64,000 bases of DNA from Clostridiales bacterium. GTDB lineage: Bacteria > Bacillota > Clostridia > Christensenellales > Aristaeellaceae. The position numbers were made by a program, and so were the translations under genes. The DNA is taken from the NCBI GenBank assembly GCA_004557125.1, contig SFET01000007.1:31561-95560 (forward strand), written 5' to 3'. Positions 6,251 through 55,354 of this stretch are shown here, in pieces (positions within the stretch are counted from its first letter, which is position 1; every line of letters begins with the position of its first letter). Below the pieces are notes generated by a model. It searched no databases and was not told the origin of the DNA. It saw only the letters and a program-made list of their open reading frames with translations.

Positions 6251-6395
6251 ATATGGATGGACCGGGGCTTCGGCTCCGGTCTTTTCATGCCCGATTTGAG
6301 GGGGAAAATCGTGGGATTCCGGCGAAAGCGGCAACATTTTCCGGAGAAAAAACGTCCCATAAATATAGGAAGAATGTACCGAAGGAGGGAAAACC

Positions 6396-8348: not shown

Positions 8349-8360
8349 GGAGGTGTGCAT

Positions 8361-25626: not shown

Positions 25627-26799
25627 TCAACGATTGTTGATGGAAATTTCCGCGTTGATCTCCTCGGACGAGGAATAGACGGTGAGCGCCCCGTCCGTCA
25701 GCTGCACCCAGGAGACGCTCTCCCCGAAGCAGCTGGGGCAGGGCAGCTTGCCGTCAGCATTGGCGGTGGCGATGCTGTGGGCCGAGGCGTTCTGCATGCC
25801 GGAGCAGTCCTCGGCCAGGTGGTAGTACACACTGCCCGGGGTGTAGTAGACCACGCCGACCCCATCTTCAGCCTCCGTCACGGCAGCGCTCTCGTAGAGG
25901 GTCAGCGGGTTCCAGGCGCAGTCCGAGCAGGCACCGTAGCCCTCCACCAGCGCCTGTTCCATGGTCAGCGCGCGGTCAAGGCTCTGTCCGCCGCAGTCGG
26001 GCACGCTGTGATAGTCGCTGCCCGGCGCGTCGTAACTTGCGTAGACGATGGAGGCCAGCGCCGCCGGCAGGAAGCAGTCGGTGCAGGGGCTCTTGCCCAG
26101 GGAGCGCGCCTCGGCGATGCTCATGAGGTTTGCGTTCTGCATGCCGGAGCAGTCGGACTCCTTGTGGAAGCAGACCCCGCCCTCCGTGCAGAACACCCAA
26201 CTTTCGACGCAGATGGGGCAGGCCTTCTTGCCCAGGGTCGCCGCCTTCTCCCTGGTCATGAGGGATGCGCCCTGCATGCCGGAGCAGTCTGCCTCGTTGT
26301 GATAGTAGTACCCACTCTGCGTGCAGTACACCACGCTTCCGATGCAGGCGGGACAGGCGGTCTTGCCCATGGCCTCGGCCTTCTCGATGGTCATGTGGGT
26401 CGCACCCTCCATGCCAGAGCAGTCGGGCTGACTGTGGTAGTATTTGCCGCCCTCCGTGCAGTAGACGGAGGCCTCGTCGTTCACGGGCGCGGGGGTGTCC
26501 GTGGGCTCAGGCGTGACTGTCGCGGTGGGTTCGGCTGTGACCGTCGCGCTGGGGGCGGGGGTCGGGGTCACGTTGGTTTGGCTCAGGGGGAGCAGGTCGG
26601 GCTTGGGCTGGTTCATGCGGCCCATGGAGAACAGCGCCGCGCCCAGCAGGATCACCAGCGCCGCGGCCACGGACAGCATGCCGGCCACCCTGCGCCGCCG
26701 CGCCGACAGTCGCGCGCCCCGAAGGAAGCCCAGGCGGATGGCCTCGCCCACGCAGTCGGGGGTCTGCGGGAAGGCCCGGTCGAAATCGATCCTGTTCAT
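25627..26799 (-). CDS. Putative anti-sigma factor: short cytoplasmic N-terminus, one TM, Pro/Thr linker, five H-x4-C-x21-C-x2-C modules
   Basis: ATGA-coupled to the ECF sigma gene. TM is MLSVAAALVILLGAALF. Five modules such as YYHSQPDCSGMEGATHMTIEKAEAMGKTACPAC. Confidence 0.6.
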   Translation of the reverse strand: MNRIDFDRAFPQTPDCVGEAIRLGFLRGARLSARRRRVAGMLSVAAALVILLGAALFSMGRMNQPKPDLLPLSQTNVTPTPAPSATVTAEPTATVTPEPTDTPAPVNDEASVYCTEGGKYYHSQPDCSGMEGATHMTIEKAEAMGKTACPACIGSVVYCTQSGYYYHNEADCSGMQGASLMTREKAATLGKKACPICVESWVFCTEGGVCFHKESDCSGMQNANLMSIAEARSLGKSPCTDCFLPAALASIVYASYDAPGSDYHSVPDCGGQSLDRALTMEQALVEGYGACSDCAWNPLTLYESAAVTEAEDGVGVVYYTPGSVYYHLAEDCSGMQNASAHSIATANADGKLPCPSCFGESVSWVQLTDGALTVYSSSEEINAEISINNR

Positions 26800-27278
26800 G
26801 CTTGTTCATCTCCCGCGTTGAGGATTTTGCGCAGGCTGTTTCGGGCCTGGTGCAGCCGGGACTTGACCAGGGAATAGGGGATGTCCAGAATCCGGCCCAC
26901 GTCGCGCAGGTCGTAGCCCTCCAGATAGCGCAGCAGCAGCGGCATGCGGTACTTCTCCGGCATGCTTTCAAGCGCCTCGCGCAGCTGCAGATCCTCGGTC
27001 ATGGAATCCTGCTGCGACGGGCTGACCTGCTCGTCCAGCGGAGACAGCCGCAGCTTCTGCTTCCGCTGCAAATTGCGGCACTCGTTGACCAGGATGCGCG
27101 CAAGCCAGGCCTCGAAACGCGCCTCCTCCTTCAGGGAGCCGCGCTTCATCCAGCCCTTGAACACCGCCTCCTGAATGGCGTCGGCACAGTCGGCGTCATT
27201 CCACAGCACGGCGCGGGCGATGCGGTAGAGCTTGCGCTCCATCGCCTGCACCCGTGCCATGTACTCCTGGTCGCTCAT
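26796..27278 (-). CDS. ECF-type sigma-70 family RNA polymerase sigma factor
   Basis: Region 2 (..DAIQEAVFKGW..) and region 4 (..LPEKYRMPLLLRYLEGYDLRDVGRILDIPYSLVKSRLHQAR..). AGGTG RBS before the ATG at 27278. Confidence 0.88.
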   Translation of the reverse strand: MSDQEYMARVQAMERKLYRIARAVLWNDADCADAIQEAVFKGWMKRGSLKEEARFEAWLARILVNECRNLQRKQKLRLSPLDEQVSPSQQDSMTEDLQLREALESMPEKYRMPLLLRYLEGYDLRDVGRILDIPYSLVKSRLHQARNSLRKILNAGDEQA

Positions 27279-27344
27279 GGTAACACCTGCATTCGTCTTT
27301 GCTGGAGCGCGCACCCTCGCGCGCTCCGCCGGGTTATCGCTGCA

Positions 27345-28100
27345 CTATTGGATGCACACGGGGCAGGCTTCCTTCCCCGCGCGGATTGCGTCCTCGGCGA
27401 ACACGGGAGATGCGTTCTCCATGCCCTGACAGTGGGCGTCGCTGTGATAGTATTTGCCCTTCGCGGTGGCGTAGCAGGTCGCCGCGATGCACACGGGGCA
27501 GGGCTCCTTCCCCGCAAGCACCGCATCCTCCGCGAACACCGGGACAGCGTTCTGCATGCCCTGACAGTGGGAATCGCTGTGGTAGTACCTGCCCTTCTCG
27601 GTGGCGTAGCAGGTCGCCGCGACGCATACCGGGCAGGCCTCCTTGCCCGCGAGGATCGCGTCCTCCGCAGTCACGGGAGAGGCGTTCTGCATGCCGCAGC
27701 AGTCGGAAATGCGGTGGAAGTACTTGCCCCGGGGCGTGGCGTAGTACGCGCCCTCGACGCACACGGGACAGGCAGCCTTTCCCCGTGCGGTCGCCTGCGC
27801 TTCCGTCAGCAGGGAGGCGTTCTGCATGCCCTGACACTGTTTGTCGAGGTGGTAGTATTTGCCCTGCTCGGTGGCGTAGACGCACCCCGCGATGCACAGC
27901 GGGCAGGGGGTCTTGCCGGAGAGCAGCATCTCCTCCTCGGTCATGGGGGATGCGTTCTGCATGCCGGAGCACTGTTTGTCGAGGTGGTAGTAGTTCCCCT
28001 CGGAGGTGGCGTAGAAGGTCTCGGCAGATGCGCATACGGGCAGCAGCATGCACAGAAGCAGCAGGACGCTGCAAGGAACTGCAATGAAAATCCGTTTCAT
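27345..28100 (-). CDS. Secreted protein made only of a signal peptide plus five 45-aa H-x4-C-x21-C-x2-C modules
   Basis: AGGAGGAAAG RBS. Signal peptide MKRIFIAVPCSVLLLLCMLLPVCASA. Five copies of YAT..G.YYH....C.GMQNA......A...GK..CP.C. Confidence 0.8.
   Translation of the reverse strand: MKRIFIAVPCSVLLLLCMLLPVCASAETFYATSEGNYYHLDKQCSGMQNASPMTEEEMLLSGKTPCPLCIAGCVYATEQGKYYHLDKQCQGMQNASLLTEAQATARGKAACPVCVEGAYYATPRGKYFHRISDCCGMQNASPVTAEDAILAGKEACPVCVAATCYATEKGRYYHSDSHCQGMQNAVPVFAEDAVLAGKEPCPVCIAATCYATAKGKYYHSDAHCQGMENASPVFAEDAIRAGKEACPVCIQ
27348..28013 (-). repeat. About 135-bp tandem DNA repeats (5 copies) encoding the Cys/His modules
   Basis: For example, the 27411-27530 and 27541-27660 units align with only scattered substitutions (gttctccatgccctgacagtgggcgtcgctg.. 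versus gttctgcatgccctgacagtgggaatcgctg..). Confidence 0.85.
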
Positions 28101-28153
28101 AAATCTTTCCTCCTGATCGGATGAATCATCTCAAGCATGCTTTCATCTATATA

Positions 28154-28179
28154 GACGAAGGGAAGTGCAGTTTGGTTGA
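28154..28179 (-). promoter_or_regulatory. Candidate ECF-type promoter for the Cys-module/sigma/anti-sigma operon
   Basis: Minus strand reads TCAAC-N17-CGTC (CAAC at 28178-28175, CGTC at 28157-28154), about 55 nt upstream of the start codon at 28100. Confidence 0.4.
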
Positions 28180-28226
28180 ATCTGCGGCAAAAAATATTGT
28201 TTTTTATGGATGCGGAGGAGCACGGC

Positions 28227-28252
28227 TGAACTTTTTCCGATTTCTGACCGTC
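28227..28252 (+). promoter_or_regulatory. Candidate ECF-type promoter for the MotA/MotB-like operon
   Basis: Plus strand reads TGAAC-N17-CGTC (28227-28231 and 28249-28252), about 125 nt upstream of the ATG at 28379. Confidence 0.4.
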
Positions 28253-28378
28253 CAAATGCGGAGAAAGCCGCATTTGTCGATATTTCGTCATGCGGGCATC
28301 CAGATTCCGTCGCATGCCGATGCTATACTGTATGTGTATAGCTATATCGGTGAGAAAGAACAGCAAACGGAGGTACAT

Positions 28379-29950
28379 ATGGGATTTCTTTCTTCCTTAA
28401 AGAGCATCCTGGGCGGCAGCTTTTTCAATCTGCTGATCTATGCAGTCATCCTGTTTGTCTTCATAATGGGCCTGATCAAGTGCGTGTTTCCGGTGCTGCG
28501 CACCCGGGGAACCCTGCGCAGCGCGATCCGCAACATCCGCGCCGGAACCGAGGCGAAGAAGTCCTGGCAGGAGGACGACTTCCTGGGCAAGGGCGTGCTC
28601 AGCGCTCACTGGAGCGAATACTTAAACAACCTGTTCTTCGCGGACGGCGTGTACCACAACGCCTCCAACGTGGAGGACTTCATCAATGAGGAGACCGTGA
28701 TCTACGGCCCCGGACGCGCCGCCTTCAGCGACGCCGTGCCCAGCCTGCTGGTCTCCATCGGCTTCCTGGGCACGCTGATCGGCCTGGCCCAGGGCCTCTC
28801 CGGCTTCAGCATGAGCGACTCCACCGCCGTGATGGACTCCATCGTCACGCTGATCCCCGGCATGCGTTACGCCTTCATGACCTCCATCTTCGGCGTGGTG
28901 GGCTCGGTGGGCTTCACGCTGATCACCCGCGCGGTGCAGGGCTCCACCGAGCACACGCTGCGCGACTTTTACAGCGCCATGAGTCGCCACGCGGGCGTGC
29001 TCTCCGTGGATCCGATGACCCAGGTGGCCATCTACCAGCAGGAGCAGACCGCGCTGATCCGCAAGATGGCAAACGACCTGGACGGCAAGCTGTCCGAGAA
29101 CATCGCCGGCGCGGTGGAGAGGGCCGTGGAGCCGCTGAACCAGAGCCTGAAGAACTTCGTCACCGTCGCCACCCGGGAACAGATGCGCTTCCTCGACGCG
29201 GTGGTGGGCCGGTTCATCGACCGCATGGACGAGATGCTGGGCGGCCAGATGAAGCGGCTGTCCGCGGCGCTGGACGAGACCGCCACGGTGCAGGAGAGCG
29301 CCCTGCGCGCCGTGCACGACAGCCTCGGCGAAACCGGCGAGATGCTGGACGGCATCCGCGAGGTCACGCGCATCGCCAACGACATGGTGCGCTCCAACGC
29401 CAAGTACATAGACGACCTGCGGCAGAACCAGAAGCAGACCGACGATGCCTTCTCCCGCGTGGCATCCAGCGTGGAGCAGATGGATCTGATCAGCCGCCAG
29501 CAGGCGAACTACCTCAAGTCCGTCTCCGCCATGCAGGCCGAGGTCGCCCGCAGCATCGACCAGATGAATTCCTCGCTGAACAACTTCACCAAGCGCGTGA
29601 CCGAGGACAGCGCCAACGCCTCCACCGGCATGCTCAAGGCCGCTGCGGAGCTGCGCGCCACCGGCGAGCACATCAAGGAGATCCACAAGGACTGCACCGA
29701 CGCGATCACTGCGGAGCTGAAGATGACGCTGGATTCCTATCAGGACTACGTCAACCAGTTCACCCAGCGCGTGGATTACCTGGCCGGAAGCATCTCCGAT
29801 TCCTTGAGCCACATGCCCCAGGCGGTGAACGATACCTCCAACCAGTTCCTGGATCAGGTGGACCGCCTCACCGACACCCTGGCCCAGGCCCAGCGCGTGC
29901 TGAACGAGACCGTTGCCCGCCTCTACGGCGACCAGCGGGCCCGGCACTGA
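28379..29950 (+). CDS. MotA/ExbB/TolQ-family proton-channel protein with a roughly 320-aa C-terminal helical tail (ZorA-like architecture)
   Basis: GGAGG lies 5 nt before the ATG. TM1 is FFNLLIYAVILFVFIMGLI. Channel hairpin LLVSIGFLGTLIGLAQG ... YAFMTSIFGVVGSVGFTLI. The remainder is uninterrupted helical/coiled-coil-like sequence. Confidence 0.7.
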   Translation: MGFLSSLKSILGGSFFNLLIYAVILFVFIMGLIKCVFPVLRTRGTLRSAIRNIRAGTEAKKSWQEDDFLGKGVLSAHWSEYLNNLFFADGVYHNASNVEDFINEETVIYGPGRAAFSDAVPSLLVSIGFLGTLIGLAQGLSGFSMSDSTAVMDSIVTLIPGMRYAFMTSIFGVVGSVGFTLITRAVQGSTEHTLRDFYSAMSRHAGVLSVDPMTQVAIYQQEQTALIRKMANDLDGKLSENIAGAVERAVEPLNQSLKNFVTVATREQMRFLDAVVGRFIDRMDEMLGGQMKRLSAALDETATVQESALRAVHDSLGETGEMLDGIREVTRIANDMVRSNAKYIDDLRQNQKQTDDAFSRVASSVEQMDLISRQQANYLKSVSAMQAEVARSIDQMNSSLNNFTKRVTEDSANASTGMLKAAAELRATGEHIKEIHKDCTDAITAELKMTLDSYQDYVNQFTQRVDYLAGSISDSLSHMPQAVNDTSNQFLDQVDRLTDTLAQAQRVLNETVARLYGDQRARH

Positions 29951-29972
29951 TGTGCGCGCCTGAGAAGGGACG

Positions 29973-31001
29973 GTGAAGCGCATGCGATCCAACCGAAGGA
30001 CGCTCGCCCGGCGGTACGGGCGCAACGACGGCAGCTTCTGGCTGAGCTTTTCGGATCTGATGAGCTCGCTGGTGCTGATTATCATTCTGGTGATGTTCTA
30101 CATCATCTATCAATACTTCAACCTGGCGGAGATCAACCAGGCGGAGATCGCCCGCCGCCAGTATCAGCTGGACGAGGCCCAGGCCGAGCTGGAGACCCAG
30201 CAGGGCAAGCTCACCGAGGCGGAGAAGCAGATGATCGCCCAGCAGATTCTGCTGGACGCGAAGCAGGAGGAGCTGGACAGCGCCCAGGCGGTGCTGGAGG
30301 CCCAGAAGACCGAGCTTGCGGATACCCAGGCCCAGCTCAGCGAGAAGGAGGCCGAAATCGCCGCCCAGCAGGCGCAGATGGAGGCCCTGGGCATCCAGCT
30401 GGACGAGCAGCAGGCCCAGATCAACACCCAACAGGCCCAGCTGGACAACCAGCAGGCCCAGATCGAGCAGCTGGTGGGCATGAAGACCCGCATCATCACC
30501 TCGCTCTCCAGCGCGCTGAAGAGCAGCAGCATCTCCGCCACGGTGGATCCCACCACCGGCTCCATCGCCCTGGAATCGGACGTGCTGTTTGAATCCGGCG
30601 AGTACAAGCTCACCGACGCGGGCAAGCGCTTCGTGGACAAGTTCCTGCCGGTGTATCTGGACGTGCTGTTCTCCGAGGAGTACAAGGGCTACGTCTCCGA
30701 GATCATCATCGAGGGCCACACGGACTCCGTGGGCGGGTATCTGACCAACCTGGAACTCTCCCAGCAGCGCGCGCTGGCCGTGGCCAGCTATGTGCTGGGC
30801 GACAGCTGCCGCGCGATCTCGGCGGACGTCAAAAATACGCTCCGACCGGTGGTCACCGTCAACGGCCGCAGTTATAGCGATCGCATCTTCAACGCCGACG
30901 GCACCGAGAACATGGACGCCTCCCGAAGGGTCGTGTTCAAGTTCCGCCTCACCGACGAGCAGATGATCCAGCAGCTGCGCCAGATCTTGGAATCCGAATA
31001 A
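29973..31001 (+). CDS. MotB/OmpA-family peptidoglycan-binding partner with a coiled-coil spacer
   Basis: N-terminal FWLSFSDLMSSLVLIIIL (MotB-type TM with the conserved Asp). About 115-aa Q/E-rich coiled coil. OmpA-like IIIEGHTDSVG..NLELSQQRALAV..SRRVVFKF. GTG at 29973; the ATG at 29982 is an alternative start. Confidence 0.75.
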   Translation: MKRMRSNRRTLARRYGRNDGSFWLSFSDLMSSLVLIIILVMFYIIYQYFNLAEINQAEIARRQYQLDEAQAELETQQGKLTEAEKQMIAQQILLDAKQEELDSAQAVLEAQKTELADTQAQLSEKEAEIAAQQAQMEALGIQLDEQQAQINTQQAQLDNQQAQIEQLVGMKTRIITSLSSALKSSSISATVDPTTGSIALESDVLFESGEYKLTDAGKRFVDKFLPVYLDVLFSEEYKGYVSEIIIEGHTDSVGGYLTNLELSQQRALAVASYVLGDSCRAISADVKNTLRPVVTVNGRSYSDRIFNADGTENMDASRRVVFKFRLTDEQMIQQLRQILESE

Positions 31002-31037
31002 AACAAAGCATCAAAAGACAAAAGGGGAAATGCAAAA

Positions 31038-31592
31038 GTGCTCCACCTTCGCAGGCTGGTCTGGTTCATCGCCTCCCGGCTGATCCTGCTGTGCATCATC
31101 TGCGGCATCCTTGTGTGCGCCTTCTACATGTGCCTGAACACGGCAAACATCTACATCATCCTCACCGACGGCCTGGAGAAGCGCGCCAGCGTGATCCTGA
31201 CCCAGGAGGACGCCGAGGATCTGAACTTCTACTTCCACGCCGACTTCCTCAGCGCCGACCGCGCGCTGGAGGGCGCCTTCGACGGCACCAGCGTGTACGA
31301 CGATTACAGCATCACCGACTTCGAATACGAACTGAAGATCGAAAAGCTCTGGGCCTGGCCCTGGGACAACTACGCCACCTGCACGGTTGTGGAGCGCGTG
31401 CCCTCCATCACCGGCAGCGTGATCTCCAGCCGCAAGAGCGAGGTCTCCGGCAGCGTGCCCTCCTGGCAGGGCGGCCGCTACGACATCACGCTGGTCAAGG
31501 TCAGCGGCGAGTGGAAGATCCTCGGCATGCAGCAGACCACCGTGCTGATGGAGGCCGCCGGAGCCGATGCCACAGTCGGCCCCGAAGCGTAA
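31038..31592 (+). CDS. Single-pass membrane protein with an extracytoplasmic globular domain, unknown function
   Basis: GTG start. N-in TM (LVWFIASRLILLCIICGILVCAFYM) followed by about 150 aa of mixed alpha/beta sequence. No family recognised. Confidence 0.5.
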   Translation: MLHLRRLVWFIASRLILLCIICGILVCAFYMCLNTANIYIILTDGLEKRASVILTQEDAEDLNFYFHADFLSADRALEGAFDGTSVYDDYSITDFEYELKIEKLWAWPWDNYATCTVVERVPSITGSVISSRKSEVSGSVPSWQGGRYDITLVKVSGEWKILGMQQTTVLMEAAGADATVGPEA

Positions 31593-31711
31593 AATTTTCC
31601 AAATCTGTGCCCTTCCGATGGGAAGTTTTTCCCCGGAAGGGCTGTTCAGATGAAGGGACTTATGTTATAATTACATATGTATAATTGCAAAAAGGGTTAG
31701 GAGGCTTATCC

Positions 31712-33295
31712 ATGGATCGAAAGAATAAGGTGTGGCTTGTCGTGCTGGCACTTCTGCTGGTGCTGGCAATCGCGGCAGTGATCGTCATCAACGGCAGGCT
31801 GTCCACGTCCAAGACGGCGCTGGAGGCGATGAGCACGCAGCTGGCCACGGAGCAGGAGAATTCCGAGGCGCTGAACGCGCAGCTGGAAGCGCTCCAGCAG
31901 AGCAGCGAAGATCTGCAGAGCGAGCTTGCACAGGCCAATGAAGAGAAAGCCTCCCTTGAAACGCAGCTGACCGAGGCGGAAGCAAAGACCACCGAGGCCG
32001 AAGCGCGCGCCACCGAGGCGGAGACGAAGGTCGCAGAGCTGGAGAATCGCGCTACTGTGGCCGAGACGAAGGCTGCCGATCTGGAGGCGCAGCTGGGCGT
32101 GGCTGCTGACAGCAACGCCGCCCTGACGGGACAGCTGAGCGCTGCGCAGACCCAGGCGGAGCAGCTGGCCAGCGATCAGCAGGCCGCGCAGTACACCATC
32201 GCCACCATGGAGACTGCCGCACAGGAATATCAGAAGCGCATCGAGGAGCTGGAGACCTGCGCCGTGGATGCCCAGAACAGGATCGACGAGCTCAACGCCG
32301 CCATCCGCACCGCTGAGGAGCGCATCGTGGAGCTGGGCGGCGAGGTGACGCCCACCGCGCAGGAGGGCGACGTCGTGCCCGCCGCACAGACGGCCGGTGC
32401 ACAGCCGGTGGAGGGTGATCCGACTGCAGCGGCTCAGGCGCCCCTGCTGGCGGTGCCCGAGGTGCAGACCCCCGAAATCCTGGCAAATGCCGACAAGGTG
32501 AATGTGGAAGAGATCTATGCGGACATCGATTCCATCGTCAATGGCGGCGAGGGCGCCATGACCGACGAGGAGAAGGTCGCCGCGCTGGATGAGCTGAAGG
32601 CGGAGCTTGCCGGCTACGTCAGCGAGCTGAACGCAGCGCTGGAGGAGATCGCCGCACAGGAGAGCGCGCTGGCCGCTTCCGTGGACAGCATCGAGTCCCT
32701 GGAGGCCAATCTCGCCGCCGCACAGGCCCAGGTGGATGAGCTGGCCGCAGCCATCGCCCAGAGCGAGGAGACCATCGCCAGCCTCGAAACCCAGCTTTCC
32801 GAGCTCACCGCCCAGAGCGAGAGCGACATCGCCCTCGCTGCCTCCCAGATCGAGACCCTCAACGGACAGATCGCCGAGGAGCAGACCAGGGTCGCCGAGC
32901 TCAGCTCCCAGCTGGAGATCGCCAACGCCGAGCTGGCCGCGCGCATCGCCGAGCTGGAGGCCTACAAGCTCAACCGCGAGCTGGTGGAGGGTGACGCCTA
33001 CACCGCATCCACGCTGGGCGACGTCCTGGCGGTTGCCGCCGACGGCGTGACCGTGGAGTGGACCTACACCAATGACACCATCAGCGGCAACGCAGTGGTG
33101 CTCAGCATTGAACTGGACGGCGAGGAGCTCTACCGCTCTGAGCTGCTCAATCCGGGTGAGAGCCTGGAGGGCATCGTGCTGAACCGCGCCCTGGAGGCCG
33201 GCAGCTACGAGGCCGTGGCCGTGGCGGGCGTGTACGGCGCCGACGGCGAAGCCATTTCCTCCACGCACGTGCCGGTGACCATCCAGGTCGGCTGA
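31712..33295 (+). CDS. Single-pass membrane protein with a roughly 400-aa extracytoplasmic coiled coil and a beta-rich C-terminal domain
   Basis: AGGAGG lies 7 nt before the ATG at 31712. TM is VWLVVLALLLVLAIAAVIVI. Long A/E/Q/L heptad-like sequence. C-terminal ..VTVEWTYTNDTISGNAVVLSIELDGEELY... Confidence 0.65.
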   Translation: MDRKNKVWLVVLALLLVLAIAAVIVINGRLSTSKTALEAMSTQLATEQENSEALNAQLEALQQSSEDLQSELAQANEEKASLETQLTEAEAKTTEAEARATEAETKVAELENRATVAETKAADLEAQLGVAADSNAALTGQLSAAQTQAEQLASDQQAAQYTIATMETAAQEYQKRIEELETCAVDAQNRIDELNAAIRTAEERIVELGGEVTPTAQEGDVVPAAQTAGAQPVEGDPTAAAQAPLLAVPEVQTPEILANADKVNVEEIYADIDSIVNGGEGAMTDEEKVAALDELKAELAGYVSELNAALEEIAAQESALAASVDSIESLEANLAAAQAQVDELAAAIAQSEETIASLETQLSELTAQSESDIALAASQIETLNGQIAEEQTRVAELSSQLEIANAELAARIAELEAYKLNRELVEGDAYTASTLGDVLAVAADGVTVEWTYTNDTISGNAVVLSIELDGEELYRSELLNPGESLEGIVLNRALEAGSYEAVAVAGVYGADGEAISSTHVPVTIQVG

Positions 33296-33322
33296 GCCGC
33301 GAGCGGACATTTCAGACGTGCG

Positions 33323-33354
33323 ACAGGGCGAAGCAAAGGCTTCGCCCTGTTTTT
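33323..33354 (+). terminator. Intrinsic terminator closing the MotAB-like operon
   Basis: acagggcgaagc/gcttcgccctgt stem followed by ttttt. Confidence 0.8.
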
Positions 33355-33370
33355 GCGTGGCGACGCAGCA

Positions 33371-33409
33371 AAAAGGGACCTGTGAAACAGAACTTCACAG
33401 GTCCCTTTT
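33371..33409. terminator. Bidirectional terminator (serves the minus-strand epimerase operon)
   Basis: 16-bp stem aaaagggacctgtgaa/ttcacaggtccctttt with A and T runs on both sides. Confidence 0.8.
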
Positions 33410-33450: not shown

Positions 33451-34479
33451 TCAGCGGCTGATCTCCAGCGTGTGGGCAAGGCCCGTGCGCAGGTCGTACG
33501 CGGCGCGCCAGCCCAGGTTCATCAGCTTTCTGGGGTCAAGCACCGCCCGCGTCACGGCGGAGTAGCCCGCGCGCTCTGCCTCCGGGGGCAGGTCGAATTT
33601 GAGCTGCACGCCCGCAAGATCGGCCAGCGTTCCGGCGTATTCCCGGATGGACGGGCTGCAGTCCGGGTTGGCGACGTTGTAGGCCTCGCCGGTTGCGCCC
33701 TTCAGCAGCAGCGTGATGAGTGCCGAGGCGGTGTCGGCGGCGTAGCAGTAGGAACGAATCTGCGTTCCGGGGCTCTTGAGTACGATGTCCCGCTTCTCCA
33801 GCGCGCAGCGCAAAAACTGCGCGTCGGCGCGGCTGTTCTCTTTGGTGATCGTCGGCCCGTAGGTGTAGGTGAGCCGGGCGACCAGCGCGTCCACGCCGTA
33901 CTGATGGGCGTAGCTGGCGCACAGCGTCTCCGCGGCGCGCTTGCTCTCCGGGTAGCAGGATCGGAAGCGCATGGGATCGACGCTGCCGAAGCTGTGCTCA
34001 TCGAAGCTCGGAAGATTCGGGTTCTCGCCGTAGATCTCGCCGGTGGAGAGGAACAGCAGGCGACCGGACGTGTTGCGCAGCCGCTCCAGCAGCTGCATCG
34101 TGCCCAGCAGGTTGGCCTGCATGGTGCCCACGGGATCGCTGGAGAAGGCCAGCGGATGGGCGTTGGATGCGGCGTGCACGACGTAGTCCGCGCGGAAGTC
34201 GGCGTCCAGCGGCGCGCAGGCGTCGTAGGGCAGGAAGGTCAGGCAATCCATGCCGGACAGGCGCTCCTTTGCGGTCTCCGGCTTCCGGCACAGCGCGGTC
34301 AGGCGCAGATGCAGGCCGTGCGCCCGATTGACCGCGTCCAGCGCGCGCAGCAGGTAGCTGCCCACCAGCCCGGTCGCGCCGGTGACGGCCACGGTCTTGC
34401 CCGCCAGATCATCCCAGAGCAGGTTCAGCGCGGCGATGTTGTTCAGTTCCTCCGCCAGCAGCGGGTGATGGATGTTCAC
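33451..34479 (-). CDS. NAD-dependent epimerase/dehydratase (extended SDR) family protein
   Basis: GAGGAGG lies 6 nt before the GTG at 34479. Rossmann VAVTGATGLVGSYL. Catalytic YPESK. The 528-aa track ORF is over-extended. Confidence 0.8.
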   Translation of the reverse strand: MNIHHPLLAEELNNIAALNLLWDDLAGKTVAVTGATGLVGSYLLRALDAVNRAHGLHLRLTALCRKPETAKERLSGMDCLTFLPYDACAPLDADFRADYVVHAASNAHPLAFSSDPVGTMQANLLGTMQLLERLRNTSGRLLFLSTGEIYGENPNLPSFDEHSFGSVDPMRFRSCYPESKRAAETLCASYAHQYGVDALVARLTYTYGPTITKENSRADAQFLRCALEKRDIVLKSPGTQIRSYCYAADTASALITLLLKGATGEAYNVANPDCSPSIREYAGTLADLAGVQLKFDLPPEAERAGYSAVTRAVLDPRKLMNLGWRAAYDLRTGLAHTLEISR

Positions 34480-34490
34480 AGTTAACCTCC

Positions 34491-35189
34491 TCAGCGCCCG
34501 TTCAGGCTCAGCAGCGCCCGGAAGATGTCGATGTCCTCCGGCGTGGTGAGCTTGATGTTCTTTTCGGAGCCGTGGGAGAAGTAGATCGTGCGCCCCAGCT
34601 CCACCATCAGCGTGCAGGACGCGATGGAGTTGGTGATGCCCCTCTCCAGAGCCTCGCGATGCGCGTCGGCCAGCACCCCGATGGGGAAGGCCTGGGGGGT
34701 CTGGGTGCGCTTCAGGTTCTGCCGGGGGTAGCTTGCGCAGGTGGAAACCTGGTCGGTGGTCTCCAGCATGGCCTCCTGACAGGGCACCACGGCGATGGCC
34801 GAGCCGTACTGGGTGGCGGTGGCGATGCAGTCGGAGATGATGTCCGCCGAGAGCATGGGCCGGATCGCGTCGTGCACCAGCACCAGATCGTCCCGGCTGT
34901 AGTGCTTCTCCAGCTCCAGCACGCCGTTGCGGATGGAATCCTGGCCGTTTTCGCCGCCGGGGATGATGTGCCTGAGCTTCGTGATGCCGTACTGCCGCGC
35001 GTAGGCGGAGAGGATGTTCTCCCAGCCCGCGATGCACACCACCGCGATGGCGTCGATGTCGGCGTGCTTCTGGAACGCCTCCATGGTGTAGACGATGACC
35101 GGCTTTTCGTTCACGGTCAAAAACTGCTTGGGGATCTCCTGATGCATGCGCATGCCCTTGCCGCCCGCGATGATCAGCGCGATGTTCAT
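34491..35189 (-). CDS. IspD/TarI-family cytidylyltransferase (CDP-alditol synthesis)
   Basis: MNIALIIAGGKGMRM....PKQFL..N.KP.IVYT. An alternative start at 35213 adds 8 aa. Confidence 0.8.
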   Translation of the reverse strand: MNIALIIAGGKGMRMHQEIPKQFLTVNEKPVIVYTMEAFQKHADIDAIAVVCIAGWENILSAYARQYGITKLRHIIPGGENGQDSIRNGVLELEKHYSRDDLVLVHDAIRPMLSADIISDCIATATQYGSAIAVVPCQEAMLETTDQVSTCASYPRQNLKRTQTPQAFPIGVLADAHREALERGITNSIASCTLMVELGRTIYFSHGSEKNIKLTTPEDIDIFRALLSLNGR

Positions 35190-35209
35190 ATGATGCACCT
35201 TCCTTTGGT

Positions 35210-36352
35210 TCACTTGCGCTCCAGGGCCTCGCGCAGCTGGGTGCTGCTGGTGCCCTGGGTGTAGGGGAAGTAGATGATCTTAACGCCCAGCGGAGTCAGC
35301 TCGCGCTCGTAGCGATTGAAGCGCTCCGTGCCCTTGTAGTCGCTGCCCACGAAGAGGTAGTCGTAGGGGTAGAGATTGTACATCTCGTCGTCCTCGTCCA
35401 GCGTGACGACCACCTTGTCCACATATTTGATGCTGCCGACGATCTCCATGCGCTCCTCCAGCGGGATGAAGGTCGGCTTGTTCTTGTGGGAGGATCCCGG
35501 CGGGTGTACGCCCACGATCAGATAGTCGCAGTACTGCTTCGCCCGGCGCAAGAGGTTCAGATGGCCGATGTGGAAGAGGTCGAAGGTGCCGCTCAGGAAG
35601 CCGATCTTCCCCCGGGGCTTGTCCGACGCGCGGCCGCTCTGCTGCTTGTACTGCCAGCTCTCCACGCCGAAGCGAACCGGGTCGGCATGATAGCGCTCCA
35701 GCACCTCGCGGTAGGTCTCCTCATATTTGGGAATCCACAGCGTCTCGCGGTGCAGCATGCGGGAAACGATCTCCTCCGCCAGCGCGCGGGTCTTGTCGGG
35801 TTCGTCTGCACCGCCGTAGAAGCAGGTGCCAGCGATGGCTCCGGGGGACACGTTCAGCACCCGGTTGGGACTTCCCTGGGCGATCAGCTCGGCGTTTACG
35901 GACTCGCAGAGGCTGGCCACGGCGGCCTTGCTGGCTCCGTAGCCGGCGAACATGGGCGAGGACATCAGCCCTGCGATGGAACCGAGCACCGCGCAGTAGA
36001 AGGGCCTGTCCGTGAGCAAGCGGGGCATGAACATGCGCAGCACCCGCGCGAAGCCCTCCGCGTTGGTGCGGAACAGCGCCGTGATCTCCATGTCAGTCAG
36101 CTGCTCGTAGGGGGCGATGCGCCCCAGACCCGCCGCATAGATCAGCGCGTCTGCATCCCTGTGGGCTTCGAGGGCGGCGAAGTCGTCGCAGAGCAGGTTG
36201 AAGCGCCGGTATTCGATGTTTTCTTCGGGCGAATCGGGCAGGCTGCGGCCGTAGACCGTCACCTGCGCGCCCCCGGCGGCGAGTACACGGGCGATGGCTC
36301 GCCCCACGCCGCTGGTTCCGCCGATCACCACGGCGGTGCGAATCTCGTTCAT
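35210..36352 (-). CDS. Fusion protein: N-terminal classical SDR oxidoreductase plus C-terminal TagD-like (HxGH) cytidylyltransferase
   Basis: VVIGGTSGVGRAIA and YGASKAA (SDR) in the first roughly 245 aa. Then GFLSGTFDLFHIGHLNLLRRAKQYCDYLIVGV (glycerol-3-phosphate cytidylyltransferase-type). Confidence 0.8.
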   Translation of the reverse strand: MNEIRTAVVIGGTSGVGRAIARVLAAGGAQVTVYGRSLPDSPEENIEYRRFNLLCDDFAALEAHRDADALIYAAGLGRIAPYEQLTDMEITALFRTNAEGFARVLRMFMPRLLTDRPFYCAVLGSIAGLMSSPMFAGYGASKAAVASLCESVNAELIAQGSPNRVLNVSPGAIAGTCFYGGADEPDKTRALAEEIVSRMLHRETLWIPKYEETYREVLERYHADPVRFGVESWQYKQQSGRASDKPRGKIGFLSGTFDLFHIGHLNLLRRAKQYCDYLIVGVHPPGSSHKNKPTFIPLEERMEIVGSIKYVDKVVVTLDEDDEMYNLYPYDYLFVGSDYKGTERFNRYERELTPLGVKIIYFPYTQGTSSTQLREALERK

Positions 36353-37578
36353 TGGTCTCCCTTTCCGATGGGTTCCAGCTTGGATATGATGTATTCGGCC
36401 ACGGACTGCGCCGCGTGGCCGGTCTCCGCCTCGCCGTAGAAGCGCAGGATCGCGTCGCAGTTCTCCCGGGCGCGCTCCGGCGTGGTGGCGCGAATCAGCG
36501 CGTCCATTTCCTCCGGCGTGGCGGCCACCCAGTAGGGGGAGTCCTTCATGTCGAAGTACAGCGCGCGGTTGTTGGTCTGGTAGTCCTCCAGATCGTCCTG
36601 ATACAGCCAGATGGGCCTGCGGGTCAGGGCGAAGTCCCCGGCGCAGGAGGAGTAGTCCGTGATCAGCGCATCGGAGATCTTGAGCAGCTCCGCCATTTCA
36701 GGGTGGGCGCTGGCGGCGATCAAGCGTCCGCTGCCGTCGTCGAAGGGGATGCCCCGAGTCATGTAGTGGGCGCGCACCAGGCACTGCCACTTCTCGCCGG
36801 TGGTCTCCTCCAGCACGTCAAGGACATGATTCAGATCCAGCCGCACCTTCTGCACCTCGTGGTTCTTCTGCTCGGTGTCGCGGAAGGTGGGGGCGTAGAG
36901 CAGGAGCTTTACATCCTGGGAAAGGCCCAGCTTCTCCCGGATCGCCTGTCCCTCGGCGGGGTCGTCCCGGAGCAGAATGTCGTTTCTCGGATAGCCCACC
37001 TTCAACAGCTCGCCCTTGTAGTGGAAGGCCGAGCGGAACTGCATGTCGCCGTAGTCGGAGCCGGTCACGCCCAGCGTGCACTTCTCCTCCAGCATGCGGT
37101 TGAAGCGGGTGTACTGGTGGGGGTTGTCGTAGCCCACCTTCTTGAAGGCGCGGTCGCCGTGCCAGGTCTGGATGTAGATCTGGCCCCCGGCAGGAAACTT
37201 TAAGTAGAAGCGCTTGTTGAAGTTGTCCACCGTGACCCGGGCGCAGGCCTGGGCCTCCACGCCGTCGCGGTCGATGGAGTTCAGCGCGCGCACGTAGGGC
37301 GGGATATCGAACTTCTTCCTCGCAGCCGCGCTGTCCCGGAACAGCCACACGATGTCGGTCTCCGGGCGCAGCTCGTGCAGCTTCTCGGAAATGTAGCGGG
37401 GGTTGTCGTTGTAGGAGCGGAAGTCGAAGGAGCTGAACACCACCAGGTTGCCGTCGATGCCTCGTTTGCGGCGGGCGCGGGCCATGATGTGGTTGCGGTA
37501 GGTGCCGAACAGGGGCGCGACGAACAGGTAGAACATCCGGTTCTGCTTGAAGTAGCCCTTGATTGCCTCAAATCCCAT
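36349..37578 (-). CDS. CDP-glycerol glycerophosphotransferase (TagB/TagF) family protein
   Basis: ..YIQTWHG.., ..LLYAPTFRD.., ..LITDYSS.. are family blocks. Confidence 0.8.
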   Translation of the reverse strand: MGFEAIKGYFKQNRMFYLFVAPLFGTYRNHIMARARRKRGIDGNLVVFSSFDFRSYNDNPRYISEKLHELRPETDIVWLFRDSAAARKKFDIPPYVRALNSIDRDGVEAQACARVTVDNFNKRFYLKFPAGGQIYIQTWHGDRAFKKVGYDNPHQYTRFNRMLEEKCTLGVTGSDYGDMQFRSAFHYKGELLKVGYPRNDILLRDDPAEGQAIREKLGLSQDVKLLLYAPTFRDTEQKNHEVQKVRLDLNHVLDVLEETTGEKWQCLVRAHYMTRGIPFDDGSGRLIAASAHPEMAELLKISDALITDYSSCAGDFALTRRPIWLYQDDLEDYQTNNRALYFDMKDSPYWVAATPEEMDALIRATTPERARENCDAILRFYGEAETGHAAQSVAEYIISKLEPIGKGDQ

Positions 37579-37610
37579 GTGATGAAACGCCTCGCTGTCG
37601 GTTTTTCTTC

Positions 37611-40991: not shown

Positions 40992-42179
40992 TCAAGTGCC
41001 TTTGCGCCTTGAGAAGCGCCTTTTTATCCACCGGGCGCAGGGCTTTTCCACCAGATAGGTGATCGCCACCGCCGTCAGCAGCGCTGCCGCCCAGCAGCAC
41101 AGGGTGTAGTTGTTCTGCCAGGGCTGAAGTCCCGCCCGATTGGGGTTTTCGCCCTCGTAATAAGGGATGCGCCACTTCTTCAGCTGCACCGCCAGCACCT
41201 GGTGCCAGATGTAGAAGTTGAAGCTGATGCCGGAGAGAAAGCGGATGACGCGGTTGGTAAGCAGCGCGCGCATCAGGCAGATTGAGCGGCTGCCGCAGAT
41301 CAGGAAGATGCCGCCCAGCAGCGACAGCGGGTAGCGCCACAGCATCTGCCCCAGCCGCACGTTTTCCCCGCCGCTGCGGCCCAGCTGGAGGCGCAGAATG
41401 TGATACACGCCCACCGCCGCGGCGAGGGTGAGCGCAGTGCTCAGCCAGGCGCGCCAGGCACTGCGGGGCGACCTGCAGAGCCTGCGGTAGATCCAGGCGG
41501 CCAGCATGCCGTTGGCGTACACATCCAGCATGGCGGGCAGGCAGTTGACGTAAATCGTGGTATCCGAAACGAAGGTGGCGATCAGGCCGCGGCAGAACAG
41601 CCCCAGCGCCGCCATGGCGCAGTAGGTGCAGCCGGGTCGCCGCTCGAAGGCGCGGGCCAGCAGCGGGAAGATCAGGTAGAACTGCACCTCCACCGCCATG
41701 GTCCACAGCGCGCCGTTGAGTTTGGTGAAGCTGTAGGACGAGGGAAAGAGGTTGTGGGTGAACGTGAGGTGGGAGAGGACGTCGGTCCACATTTCCCGCG
41801 CGCTCCCGTAGCCGCCGCCGGGCGCCAGCAGCGCCAGTGCCAGCATCACCGCCATGCACAGCCAGTAGCTGGGCAGGATGCGCGCGGCGCGCGCCGCATA
41901 GAAGTCGCGCAGGTCGCGTCCACGGCCGCTCAAAAAGCTCAGCATCAGCAGAGAGCCGCTGAGCAGCAGCATCAGATCCACAAACATGTAGCCGCAGGCC
42001 ACCGCGGGATACAGGCGGAAGCTGCGCCCGAACAGCTGCAGATCCGGATTCAGCCAGGACTGCTGCCAGATGTGGTACCAGCCGATCATGCCCACGCAGA
42101 TCACGCGCAGGAAATCGCCGGCGTCGGCGTAGGTGGAGTTGGATTTGCCGGGCAGAAACAGGGATTTGAGTCGTTTCAT
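40992..42179 (-). CDS. Acyltransferase family 3 (OafA-like) membrane protein
   Basis: GGAGGAAAG RBS before the ATG at 42179. ..FLRVICVGMIGWYHIWQQSW.. and about 10 TM helices. The 799-aa track ORF is over-extended into the upstream gene. Confidence 0.8.
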   Translation of the reverse strand: MKRLKSLFLPGKSNSTYADAGDFLRVICVGMIGWYHIWQQSWLNPDLQLFGRSFRLYPAVACGYMFVDLMLLLSGSLLMLSFLSGRGRDLRDFYAARAARILPSYWLCMAVMLALALLAPGGGYGSAREMWTDVLSHLTFTHNLFPSSYSFTKLNGALWTMAVEVQFYLIFPLLARAFERRPGCTYCAMAALGLFCRGLIATFVSDTTIYVNCLPAMLDVYANGMLAAWIYRRLCRSPRSAWRAWLSTALTLAAAVGVYHILRLQLGRSGGENVRLGQMLWRYPLSLLGGIFLICGSRSICLMRALLTNRVIRFLSGISFNFYIWHQVLAVQLKKWRIPYYEGENPNRAGLQPWQNNYTLCCWAAALLTAVAITYLVEKPCARWIKRRFSRRKGT

Positions 42180-42193
42180 CGCTTTCCTCCGGG

Positions 42194-43411
42194 TCATACG
42201 TGAACGGCGATGCCGCCCAGCAGGTTGAAGGCCAGTCCGAGGCCCAACAGTGCGCTCTCCCAGCGGGTCAGGGCGCGGCGATCGGGGCTGATCAGCAGCC
42301 AGACAAGGCTCAGCGGCACCAGCTCCAGCGCGTAGCGCAGGCCGAACTGCAGGCCGCCCAGCGTGCGGTGCGCCAGCAGCAGCACCACGTTCAGCGCACC
42401 CATTGCAAGGATCGTCCACTTGGTGCGATTCATGCGGCGCAGGCACAGATCCTTGCACAGCCACACCAGGTTGCAGAGCAGGATCGGACAGCTGAGAAAC
42501 ATGGAGAAGCCGAACTGCTCGAAGATCAGGCCCCCCTCCGTCAGGTGGAAGGGCGCGCCGAAGAACAGCGTGCGCCAGTTGTCGGCGATGTACGACAGGG
42601 AGAACTGGCCCTGTTCGCTGCGGATGAACTCGGGCAGATAGTTGTGGCCGAACTCGAAGATGTTGCCGAAGCGTGCGTAGTTGTAGGCTCCGTAGCAGGC
42701 CGCCACGCCCAGACCCAGCACCAGACCGGGCAGCAGGCGCTTCAGCCACCGCCGGGGACGCAGATGCATGCGCCGCGCATCCTCCAGATACAGCATCAGC
42801 AGCACCGGGCCCAGACAGGCGGTGAAGGGTCGGCAGCCCACCGACAGCGCGTAGCACAGACAGGACAGCGTGGGATGCCGACGGCGCATGGCCACGATGG
42901 CGGAGACGGAGAAGAGAAACGCCAGGATCTGCGCCTCGTACCACACGCCGCCCACCAGCGCCACCGGAAGCATGGCGCCGGCCAGGCAGATCAGCAGCGC
43001 CCAGAACACGCAGTCGGTGTTCTTCATGCGCCCGGTGCGCAGCAGCTCCGAGAGGATCACCAGCGCAGCAATGGCCACGTAGAGCTTCTGAAACAGCCCG
43101 TCGGGCACGTTGTCGCCGAAGAGCAGCGCATAGAGCACCATTGGTATGGAGGGCACCGGCGGAAAGCTGACGTAGTAGTTGCCGTTGTAGACGGCCAGCT
43201 CCAGATATTCGTAGTTCTGATCCAGCTGCGCCTCGCCCCGCAACCAGGCCTGGGCCTGCAGAAGGTAGCTGGGGTAGGGGTAGGCGCAGGGATCCACGCC
43301 TGCGCCGATGCACATCGCGGCGAAGATCAGAACGATCAGCGCCAGCAGCAAAAGCGCGCAGCGCACGGAGCCGCGCCGGCCGGAAAAGCATGGATCGGAG
43401 ATTCTTTGCAT
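42194..43411 (-). CDS. Polytopic GT-C-like membrane glycosyltransferase (GT39/ArnT-like)
   Basis: About 11 TM helices. An N-terminal extracytoplasmic loop follows TM1 (..YPYPSYLLQAQAWLRGEAQLD..YYVSFPPVPS..). Family call is tentative. Confidence 0.5.
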   Translation of the reverse strand: MQRISDPCFSGRRGSVRCALLLLALIVLIFAAMCIGAGVDPCAYPYPSYLLQAQAWLRGEAQLDQNYEYLELAVYNGNYYVSFPPVPSIPMVLYALLFGDNVPDGLFQKLYVAIAALVILSELLRTGRMKNTDCVFWALLICLAGAMLPVALVGGVWYEAQILAFLFSVSAIVAMRRRHPTLSCLCYALSVGCRPFTACLGPVLLMLYLEDARRMHLRPRRWLKRLLPGLVLGLGVAACYGAYNYARFGNIFEFGHNYLPEFIRSEQGQFSLSYIADNWRTLFFGAPFHLTEGGLIFEQFGFSMFLSCPILLCNLVWLCKDLCLRRMNRTKWTILAMGALNVVLLLAHRTLGGLQFGLRYALELVPLSLVWLLISPDRRALTRWESALLGLGLAFNLLGGIAVHV

Positions 43412-55317: not shown

Positions 55318-55354
55318 ATTTTCCACTCCTTTGGCGGGGAATTCGGGGGTAGAA

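Follow-up and report, generated by a model that had tools for sequence, protein, structure and literature searches.

The locus described here raises the question of what a motor of the Zorya type does in a chromosome in which none of the known Zorya effectors stands beside it, since ZorAB, the motor pair of the Zorya systems, has so far been seen only as an anti-phage sensor in double-membrane bacteria. We analyzed a stretch of 64,000 nt from a Clostridiales bacterium of the family Aristaeellaceae (assembly GCA_004557125.1, contig SFET01000007.1, positions 31,561 to 95,560), which is called the window throughout and to which all coordinates refer. A sequence-only reading of this stretch had described four consecutive genes (genes 1 to 4) as a stator pair in one operon with two membrane-anchored proteins and without any known effector. 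We observed that genes 1 and 2 are clear relatives of ZorA and ZorB, that the functional module is composed of genes 1, 2 and 3, and that these three genes bear the signature of a vertically inherited and constrained cellular gene set and not of a mobile defence island. Our favored reading, to which we assign a probability of roughly 55%, is that genes 1 and 2 encode a ZorAB-type motor held in the chromosome as a constitutive envelope-to-cytoplasm transducer, and not a canonical Zorya defence system.

Gene 1 (28379–29950, + strand) encodes a predicted ZorA-like motor subunit of 523 aa. A first transmembrane helix (TM1, residues ~17–38) is followed by a cytoplasmic membrane-proximal domain (~45–115), the TM2/TM3 pair (~120–185) and a helical tail of ~320 aa. 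The stretch of ~95 aa between TM1 and TM2 is present as had been described, but it was then taken for a loop, while homology to the E. coli ZorA (EcZorA), whose membrane-proximal domain is cytoplasmic (PMC11946911), and the positive-inside rule assign it to the cytoplasmic domain. Searches with hidden Markov models (HMMs) matched gene 1 to the PADLOC ZorA1 model with E=1.6e-26, and several ZorA models spanned residues 20–515. The NCBIfam ZorA and ZorB models were the top matches for genes 1 and 2, all of them under the curated cut-offs: gene 1 reached 81.8 bits with ZorA_2 (cut-off 100) and 40.5 bits with ZorA1 (cut-off 750), and gene 2 reached 73.6 bits with ZorB1 and 55.8 bits with ZorB2 (cut-off 400 for both). 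With Pfam MotA_ExbB the score of 20.7 bits lies just under the cut-off of 22.9, and the identification therefore rests on the ZorA-specific profiles. The Pfam family ZorA-like_t1 (PF28082) is precomputed in 119 of the 120 best homologues, one of them 93% identical, which assigns the family to gene 1 by proxy. Public databases thus already register the kinship with ZorA, while homologues carry the label 'MotA/TolQ/ExbB' at NCBI or, wrongly, 'methyl-accepting chemotaxis protein'.

Structural comparison pointed in the same direction. When a profile of gene 1 homologues was searched against the PDB, ZorA chains came first (8vvn_C, 2e-16; 8qyk_A, 5e-16). The AlphaFold2 monomer model of gene 1 is all-helical with a predicted local distance difference test score (pLDDT) of 61, which is low confidence, and its helix breaks at residues 209–211, 261–266 and 382–388. 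Foldseek placed the ZorA structures 8qyh, 8qyk and 8qyd best for this model (E ~3e-7), then ExbB and TolQ, and flagellar PomA far lower; the TolQRA and TonB–ExbBD complexes are among the matches. In the E. coli structure ZorB Asp26 and ZorA Thr147 and Ser184 are the essential residues (PMC11946911). Thr132 and Ser169 of gene 1 align to the two ZorA residues and were found to be invariant in 51 homologues. The parts of gene 1 with the highest conservation are the membrane-proximal domain, TM2/TM3, the first 25 residues of the tail and the tail tip at residues 446–495.

For gene 2 (29973–31001, + strand; 342 aa, a predicted ZorB-like stator subunit) the agreement was equally consistent. The protein has an N-terminal transmembrane helix with Asp28, a helical stalk rich in Q, E and A (~50–175) and an OmpA-like peptidoglycan-binding domain (~175–340). 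It matched the PADLOC ZorB1 model PDLC00609 with E=3.3e-69 in two stretches, and its profile found ZorB first in the PDB (8qyd_F, 2.5e-12). The OmpA-type wall anchor proposed earlier is supported by a Pfam OmpA score of 39.1 bits (cut-off 27.2). Likewise, the conserved MotB-type aspartate could be placed, as FWLSFSDLM of gene 2 aligns with FWISYADLM of ZorB and Asp28 thereby corresponds to ZorB Asp26. Three of the four peptidoglycan contacts of ZorB are kept (Tyr151, Asn152, Leu155 and Arg159 are Thr, Asn, Leu and Arg in gene 2). The ZorB1 match is split into the transmembrane stretch and a second stretch in which residues 153–340 of gene 2 fall on profile positions 44–230; a helical insert of ~105–125 residues, rich in Q, E and A, thus separates the membrane helix from the binding domain. 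If fully helical, this stalk would measure ~15–18 nm. Analysis of its hydrophobic periodicity gave no clear 3.5-residue signal, and therefore we term it helical and coiled-coil-like and not a proven coiled coil. Homologues of gene 2 range from 328 to 501 aa. With PADLOC, the PDB profiles and Foldseek in agreement, the earlier view of genes 1 and 2 as a long-tailed and OmpA-anchored pair similar to ZorA and ZorB is well founded.

Gene 3 (31038–31592, + strand) starts with GTG and encodes a predicted single-pass membrane protein of 184 aa; gene 4 (31712–33295, + strand) encodes an N-terminally anchored and very acidic coiled-coil protein of 527 aa. Listing of the open reading frames (ORFs) together with reading of the sequence reproduced all four as originally placed, with intergenic gaps of 22 nt between genes 1 and 2, 36 nt between genes 2 and 3 and 119 nt between genes 3 and 4, and every motif that had been pointed out was found again (LLVSIGFLGTLIGLAQG, YAFMTSIFGVVGSVGF, FWLSFSDLMSSL and EGHTDSVG..SQQRA..RRVVFKF). 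The ORFs are real genes, because all four show a coding pattern in their G+C content at third codon positions (window G+C 64%), hundreds of homologues were retrieved for them, and the ratio of non-synonymous to synonymous substitution rates (dN/dS) is 0.04–0.35 for genes 1 to 3. Upstream of gene 1 lies an AT-rich region of 278 bp (28101–28378, + strand; 44% GC compared to 64% for the window), in which a TATACT −10-like box and a GGAGG ribosome-binding site can be read before the ATG at 28379. A consensus scan of the region found no strong sigma-70 site. From its composition and these elements the region is likely the promoter of the unit formed by genes 1 to 3.

Next, we investigated which of the genes travel together. 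In a scan of one genome per species with two peptide patterns, at least 93 species with a relative of gene 1 were found and 80 loci were fetched; co-conservation was counted on 83 non-redundant loci. The carriers are all Clostridia from guts, rumen and digesters and include Aristaeellaceae (93–94% identity), Christensenellales, Candidatus Pullichristensenella, Faecivicinus and the isolate 'Bacillota bacterium Meth-B3'. Genes 1, 2 and 3 occur in 83, 79 and 75 of the 83 loci, on one strand and with a median gap of 25 nt at both junctions, and gene 3 follows gene 2 in 75 of 79 loci. The absences of genes 2 and 3 are contig ends, except in one small clade (loci L064, L065 and L070: Candidatus Alectryocaccomicrobium, Candidatus Ornithocaccomicrobium and the metagenome-assembled genome SIG374), where a rhamnosidase-like gene of 869–875 aa replaces gene 3. 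The next most common neighbours, mnmA and gene 4, reach 31 of 83 loci each, and nothing else was co-conserved. The gene order shifts along the lineage: the deepest relatives (35–45% identity) have genes 1, 2 and 3 followed by dus, often with overlapping stop and start codons, a middle group has genes 1, 2 and 3, mnmA and gene 4, and the group of the window has genes 1 to 4 in direct succession. The cultured Anaerozeibacter quisquiliarum meth-B3 has the first of these orders, ending with dus (locus L074). The functional module is therefore the trio of genes 1, 2 and 3. One metagenome-assembled genome, RGIG5017, holds two copies of gene 1 on separate contigs (L030 and L067; 58% and 68% identical to that of the window), which are either paralogues or contamination of the bin.

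The surroundings of the module speak of the core chromosome. Among the genes of the window we found those for DnaD/DnaI-like proteins, a tyrosyl-tRNA synthetase, an extracytoplasmic function (ECF) sigma and anti-sigma pair, MacAB-like exporters, YidC–Jag, an Fe-hydrogenase, AddB and a wall teichoic acid set, and the window is core chromosome. In the relatives the trio is flanked by recA, gyrAB, groEL, mnmA or metabolic genes. The identical locus was found in four metagenome samples of one species. Across 31 species the pairwise identity of genes 1, 2 and 3 correlates with that of mnmA (r ~0.6), with mean identities of 64%, 66% and 70.6% for the three genes compared to 76.1% for mnmA, so that the conservation of gene 3 nearly reaches that of mnmA. 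Plasmid and phage collections held no close copy of gene 1 and returned just proteobacterial ZorA proteins at 22–28% identity, which ruled out a phage or plasmid origin of the module. The vertical inheritance stated above is concluded from this tracking of mnmA, the low dN/dS, the housekeeping flanks and the missing plasmid and phage copies. A defence-island setting, which the sequence-only reading had put up for checking, was not borne out, as the flanks are housekeeping genes both in the window and in its relatives and the synteny shifts with phylogenetic depth. Directly downstream of the four genes lies a wall teichoic acid-type set (33451–37608, − strand) composed of an epimerase, a TarI-like cytidylyltransferase, a TarJ-like reductase–cytidylyltransferase fusion and a TagF-like glycerophosphotransferase; the set fits a single-membrane envelope, although cultured relatives are Gram-negative by stain (PMC12694931).

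For gene 3 we found no match in Pfam, PADLOC, NCBIfam or PHROGs, and naming genes 3 and 4 by generic profiles was dropped, because the matches were just sub-threshold or coiled-coil matches (SnoaL_4 0.025, PqiC 0.016, SMC/JetC noise). The AlphaFold2 model of gene 3 (pLDDT 81, with two good models out of five) begins with a long helix (residues 2–55), which includes an N-in membrane anchor, and continues outside the membrane as an alpha+beta cone. The top Foldseek matches of this model are all NTF2-like (Tim44-C, ARC6/PARC6, the N-domain of PBP2a, RsgI9 and TcpC), with a probability of ~1 and weak E-values of at least 1.5e-3. On this model gene 3 is a predicted single-pass protein with an NTF2-like outer domain. 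An exhaustive profile search returned 394 representatives at E≤1e-3 and 37 at E≤1e-30, so that the family extends beyond its motor-linked members; the gene 3-like family, an uncharacterised one, forms ~290 clusters at 50% identity in Clostridia. Seven distant members, 27–36% identical, were inspected individually. In four of the seven, dus lies directly downstream, followed by greA in two and then by lysS in one. As a rule the family stands immediately in front of dus (loci L088, L091, L093 and L097, and also L066–L087), and this pairing is conserved. A neighbour-joining tree unites the motor-linked copies of gene 3 in a single clade that excludes five of the six stand-alone members sampled. 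Because the distant stand-alone members adjoin dus and the motor-linked copies form one clade, the pairing of gene 3 with dus is older, and only in this lineage does the motor pair precede gene 3. Gene 3 is still joined to genes 1 and 2 in ~60 loci that lack dus, and this retention after dus had left argues for selection on the linkage. The single pass and the outer domain ascribed to gene 3 at the outset are thus retained, whereas its role as a dedicated motor partner is weakened by the wider family without a motor.

From these observations the following mechanism can be proposed. Five copies of gene 1 would surround two copies of gene 2 in the membrane, with the 5:2 stoichiometry taken from homology, and the gene 2 dimer would be fixed to peptidoglycan by its OmpA-like domain. 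In a single-membrane envelope the stalk of gene 2 would bridge the distance from membrane to wall. Proton flow past Asp28 of gene 2 and past Thr132 and Ser169 of gene 1 would rotate the ring of gene 1 subunits, and with it the tail of ~320 residues, which would extend up to ~48 nm if it forms one helix. The tail tip (446–495) would then engage a cytoplasmic partner encoded away from the locus. Gene 3, which would be co-transcribed with the motor genes, probably acts as an accessory or regulator on the wall side, and gene 4 is no part of the machine. In a more specific form of the transducer reading, a gut lineage with a single membrane would have turned a Zorya-type rotary motor into a core machine of the cell, the stator being anchored to the wall by its stalk and the spinning tail acting on a conserved target such as the machinery of division, of the nucleoid or of envelope synthesis; we regard this form as possible, with somewhat less than even odds.

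Several observations weigh against the transducer reading. The function is deduced from context alone, with neither a recognised output partner nor a phenotype, and all experimentally studied ZorAB pairs are defence components whose effectors could, for this locus, sit elsewhere in the genome. The model of gene 1 is weak at its pLDDT of 61, and the tail is compatible with one helix of 48 nm as well as with a folded-back bundle. The type genera Aristaeella and Christensenella (C. minuta) are absent among the 80 listed loci of the two-pattern scan, and fixation of the trio can therefore be claimed for sub-lineages of the order. As to gene 3, no ZorAB-like gene stands upstream of it in any of the five distant members with a visible upstream gene, and three species hold genes 1 and 2 without an adjacent gene 3. 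Nor is its membrane helix conserved to a greater degree in motor-linked copies, where the ratio of transmembrane to outer conservation is 0.86 compared to 0.89 in stand-alone members. Gene 3 may therefore be a bystander retained by synteny.

Of the two readings offered at the outset, a defence variant and an envelope machine, the second is favored by the vertical inheritance, the housekeeping flanks, the coupling to dus in deep lineages and the missing plasmid and phage copies. The first would make the locus a single-membrane-adapted, Zorya-like anti-phage system in which the motor detects damage done to the wall by phages, the tail activates unlinked or novel effectors and gene 3 replaces ZorC–G. 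Defence is the sole known function of the ZorAB clade (PMC11946911, PMC11890865), genes 1 and 2 are best matched by defence HMMs, a long tail with a conserved tip recruits effectors in Zorya, and Type III Zorya shows that domains of unknown function can stand in for the accessory genes (PMC8565338). However, the operon lacks an enzymatic or DNA-binding partner, and gene 3 and the tail are on opposite sides, the one outside the membrane and the other in the cytoplasm. PADLOC gave no ZorC–G or other defence match on gene 3 or on ten flanking ORFs (24.9–44.2 kb), with coiled-coil noise as the only signal on gene 4, and Pfam scans of ~40 ORFs of the window found no Zorya accessory gene, so that the claim of no known effector nearby was upheld within the window. 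The inheritance and flanks described above, the way in which deep lineages keep the trio tightly joined to dus and the lack of plasmid or phage copies also speak against a defence system, as do the missed NCBIfam Zorya cut-offs. Zorya is reportedly under-represented in single-membrane bacteria, and against that background a conserved pair of the ZorAB type stands out all the more. We therefore consider defence unlikely, although it keeps an appreciable share of our expectation.

An outward force transducer of the Tol/Ton type, in which gene 3 would dock on the rim of the motor as TolA or TonB does, serving to remodel the wall, in division or in the handling of surface proteins, and the tail is only regulatory, seems a good deal less probable. 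The gene order mirrors tolQ–tolR–tolA and exbB–exbD–tonB, ExbB and TolQ come second to ZorA in the fold search with gene 1, and gene 3 has the matching topology of an N-in anchor with an outer domain. NTF2-like outer domains are moreover known to make protein contacts in the envelope, as in ARC6/PARC6, PBP2a and RsgI9. But gene 3 shows no homology to TolA or TonB and has no long spanning linker, its membrane helix is not specially conserved in motor-linked copies compared to stand-alone homologues, and such homologues occur with no motor gene beside them. The long and conserved cytoplasmic tail of gene 1 would also be left unexplained.

The proposal of a single operon and a single machine made up of all four genes, in which gene 4 is an integral coiled-coil partner, fared poorly. 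The four genes lie on the same strand, gene 4 begins 119 nt after gene 3, and the strong terminator is found only past gene 4. Gene 4 also lies behind the trio in 31 loci that span widely differing degrees of divergence, and the stalk of gene 2 and the coil of gene 4 are alike in their acidic composition rich in Q, E and A. However, when co-conservation across genomes was checked, genes 1, 2 and 3 alone were seen to travel together: gene 4 is missing from the flank in deep lineages and in many others, where present it mostly comes behind mnmA, and mnmA in the middle lineages separates it from gene 3. In one species, a nucleotidyltransferase/HEPN-like toxin–antitoxin pair is inserted at the same place (L016, 11296–11944). 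Compared to the nearest relative, the non-synonymous rate (dN) of gene 4 is 0.197 and that of gene 1 is 0.037, so that gene 4 evolves ~5x faster than genes 1 to 3, and its homologues measure between 332 and 769 aa. From the changing gene order, the 31 of 83 loci, the dN and the variable length we conclude that gene 4 is a syntenic neighbour, and the four-gene machine is a very improbable explanation.

The sequence between genes 3 and 4 (40% GC) is in line with separate transcription, about which a caution had been voiced from the start and which our reading of the gap supports. A hairpin at 31609–31642 (+ strand; −25.7 kcal/mol, z = −4.3) has no T-run after its full stem, and a run of T5 trails just an inner 5-bp hairpin; at the end of the unit of genes 1 to 3 it may serve in partial termination or in RNA processing. 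It is followed by a promoter-like stretch (31655–31711, + strand) with two TATAAT boxes and an AGGAGG ribosome-binding site ahead of the ATG at 31712. Gene 4 is thus probably a separate transcription unit with its own promoter, outside the motor module. Behind it we confirmed a strong intrinsic terminator (33322–33355, + strand) with a G+C-rich stem of 13 bp, a 4-nt loop and T5, the hairpin at 33322–33351 plus T5 giving −28.5 kcal/mol and z = −6.0; both this terminator and the AT-rich region before gene 1 had been predicted. A second strong hairpin at 33371–33409, between gene 4 and the convergent epimerase gene, consists of A5, a 16-bp stem and T4 (−26.1 kcal/mol, z = −7.7) and resembles a bidirectional terminator. 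The membrane anchor, the coiled coil and the beta-rich C-terminus of gene 4 were all seen again. In the profile libraries the protein gave coiled-coil noise only. Its C-terminal domain of ~100 aa is conserved; no PDB profile or Pfam match was found for it, and a homologue search gave nine fragments and no family. The protein is extremely acidic, with a net charge of about −60 over 400 residues (loci L008–L063). Gene 4 probably encodes an acidic coiled-coil protein exposed at the surface, with which its fast evolution would agree, and its beta-rich end domain is unclassified.

A divergent stator of the flagellum or of other motility, similar to MotAB or MotPS, has on its side the MotA/MotB-type membrane core, the OmpA anchor and a flagellated carrier (Anaerozeibacter quisquiliarum), but it is largely refuted and of almost negligible probability, since the ZorA and ZorB profiles match best while Pfam MotA_ExbB stays sub-threshold, PomA ranks far below ZorA, ExbB and TolQ, no flagellar genes occur in the window or are co-conserved, cultured relatives of the family are non-motile (PMC12694931), and a tail of 320 residues is absent from flagellar stators. 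Pfam scans that covered most of the ORFs of the window agreed with the earlier statement that flagellar, Tol-Pal and TonB genes are absent from the window.

Some other features of the window were recorded in passing. A 46-aa Cys-rich repeat with the pattern G.YYH....C.GM.NA......A...GK..CP.C occurs in five copies in an anti-sigma-like protein of 390 aa (25627–26799, − strand) and in about six copies in a secreted protein of 251 aa (27345–28100, − strand). The ECF sigma gene (26796–27314) overlaps the gene of the anti-sigma-like protein, and the gene of the secreted protein lies immediately upstream of it. The repeat proteins at 25627–28100 had no match in Pfam or PADLOC, and the repeat may be an undescribed extracellular repeat domain. 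Two overlapping ORFs of 799 and 405 aa in different frames (40992–43411, − strand) also gave no Pfam or PADLOC match. At 6369–9866 (+ strand) two adjoining proteins join WG-containing beta repeats to a domain similar to phosphate-binding proteins. Two ORFs of ~1,100 aa at 51.8–60.8 kb were considered as candidates for ZorC and ZorD and rejected, being a PG_binding_1/fn3 wall protein and AddB; the wall protein (51856–55362, − strand) has 1169 aa with five PG_binding_1 repeats and an fn3 domain.

Among the 5:2 motors ZorAB is understood least and is the sole one with a long rotating cytoplasmic tail, and a strongly conserved and vertically inherited ZorAB-type pair free of effectors in a single-membrane lineage points to either a role beyond immunity or Zorya-like sensing that can be wired to unlinked outputs. 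Either outcome would alter how 'orphan' ZorAB matches are read in censuses of defence systems. If the core-machine form of our reading is true, this would be the first use of a Zorya-type motor outside defence, with gene 3 as a wall-side partner, and it may reveal the role of ZorAB before its recruitment to immunity. The lineage takes in abundant relatives of the rumen and gut 'R-7 group'. In the searchable literature on ZorA-like and Zorya-like motors and in reviews of 5:2 motors, MotAB, Tol and Ton we found no description of the trio of genes 1, 2 and 3.

Comparison with known systems places the trio at graded distances. Proteobacterial 'peptidoglycan-binding proteins' of the PRK09039 type (NCBIfam NF006542/NF006543) share a MotB-like transmembrane helix, a coiled coil and an OmpA-like domain with gene 2, and residues 11–179 match at E ~1e-15; the score of 57 bits stands against cut-offs of 305–388 bits, and the likeness may be mostly one of coiled-coil composition. 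The MotAB and MotPS stators of Bacillota have in common with our pair the drive by ions, the anchoring to the wall, the OmpA-like domain and the single-membrane envelope. They differ in a tailless MotA with four transmembrane helices and a rotor-contacting domain, in a MotB with plug and linker, in their linkage to flagellar genes and in weaker profile matches to genes 1 and 2 (NCBIfam MotS and MotD models gave 27–30 bits with cut-offs of 264–283). TolQRA and ExbBD–TonB belong to the same 5:2 superfamily, and their order of an A subunit, a B subunit and a single-pass N-anchored protein matches that of genes 1, 2 and 3. However, TolA and TonB are unrelated to gene 3, the domain of gene 2 is of the OmpA type and not of the TolR/ExbD type, gene 1 is long-tailed, and the outer membrane target, Pal and the TonB-dependent receptors have no counterpart in the window.

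The closest likeness is to the ZorAB of Zorya types I and II, which gives the best sequence and fold matches and for which structures are available from E. coli (EcZorI, 8QYD) and Shewanella ANA-3 (8VVN). Shared are an A subunit with three transmembrane helices, a membrane-proximal domain and a long helical tail, and a B subunit with a single transmembrane helix, an essential Asp and an OmpA-like domain, and the Thr and Ser of the ion path are kept. In contrast to Zorya types I–III, the locus of genes 1 to 3 has no ZorC/ZorD, ZorE or ZorF/ZorG, and it differs further by its host among Clostridia, its vertical inheritance and housekeeping context, its NTF2-like third gene and scores of genes 1 and 2 below the NCBIfam Zorya cut-offs. 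The tail has ~320 residues in gene 1 compared to ~500 in ZorA. Whereas in EcZorB the membrane helix is fused to the binding domain free of a linker, gene 2 has its stalk of ~105–125 residues in between, and with such a stalked ZorB one could probe directly whether, as has been published, activation is gated by how far ZorB lies from the wall.

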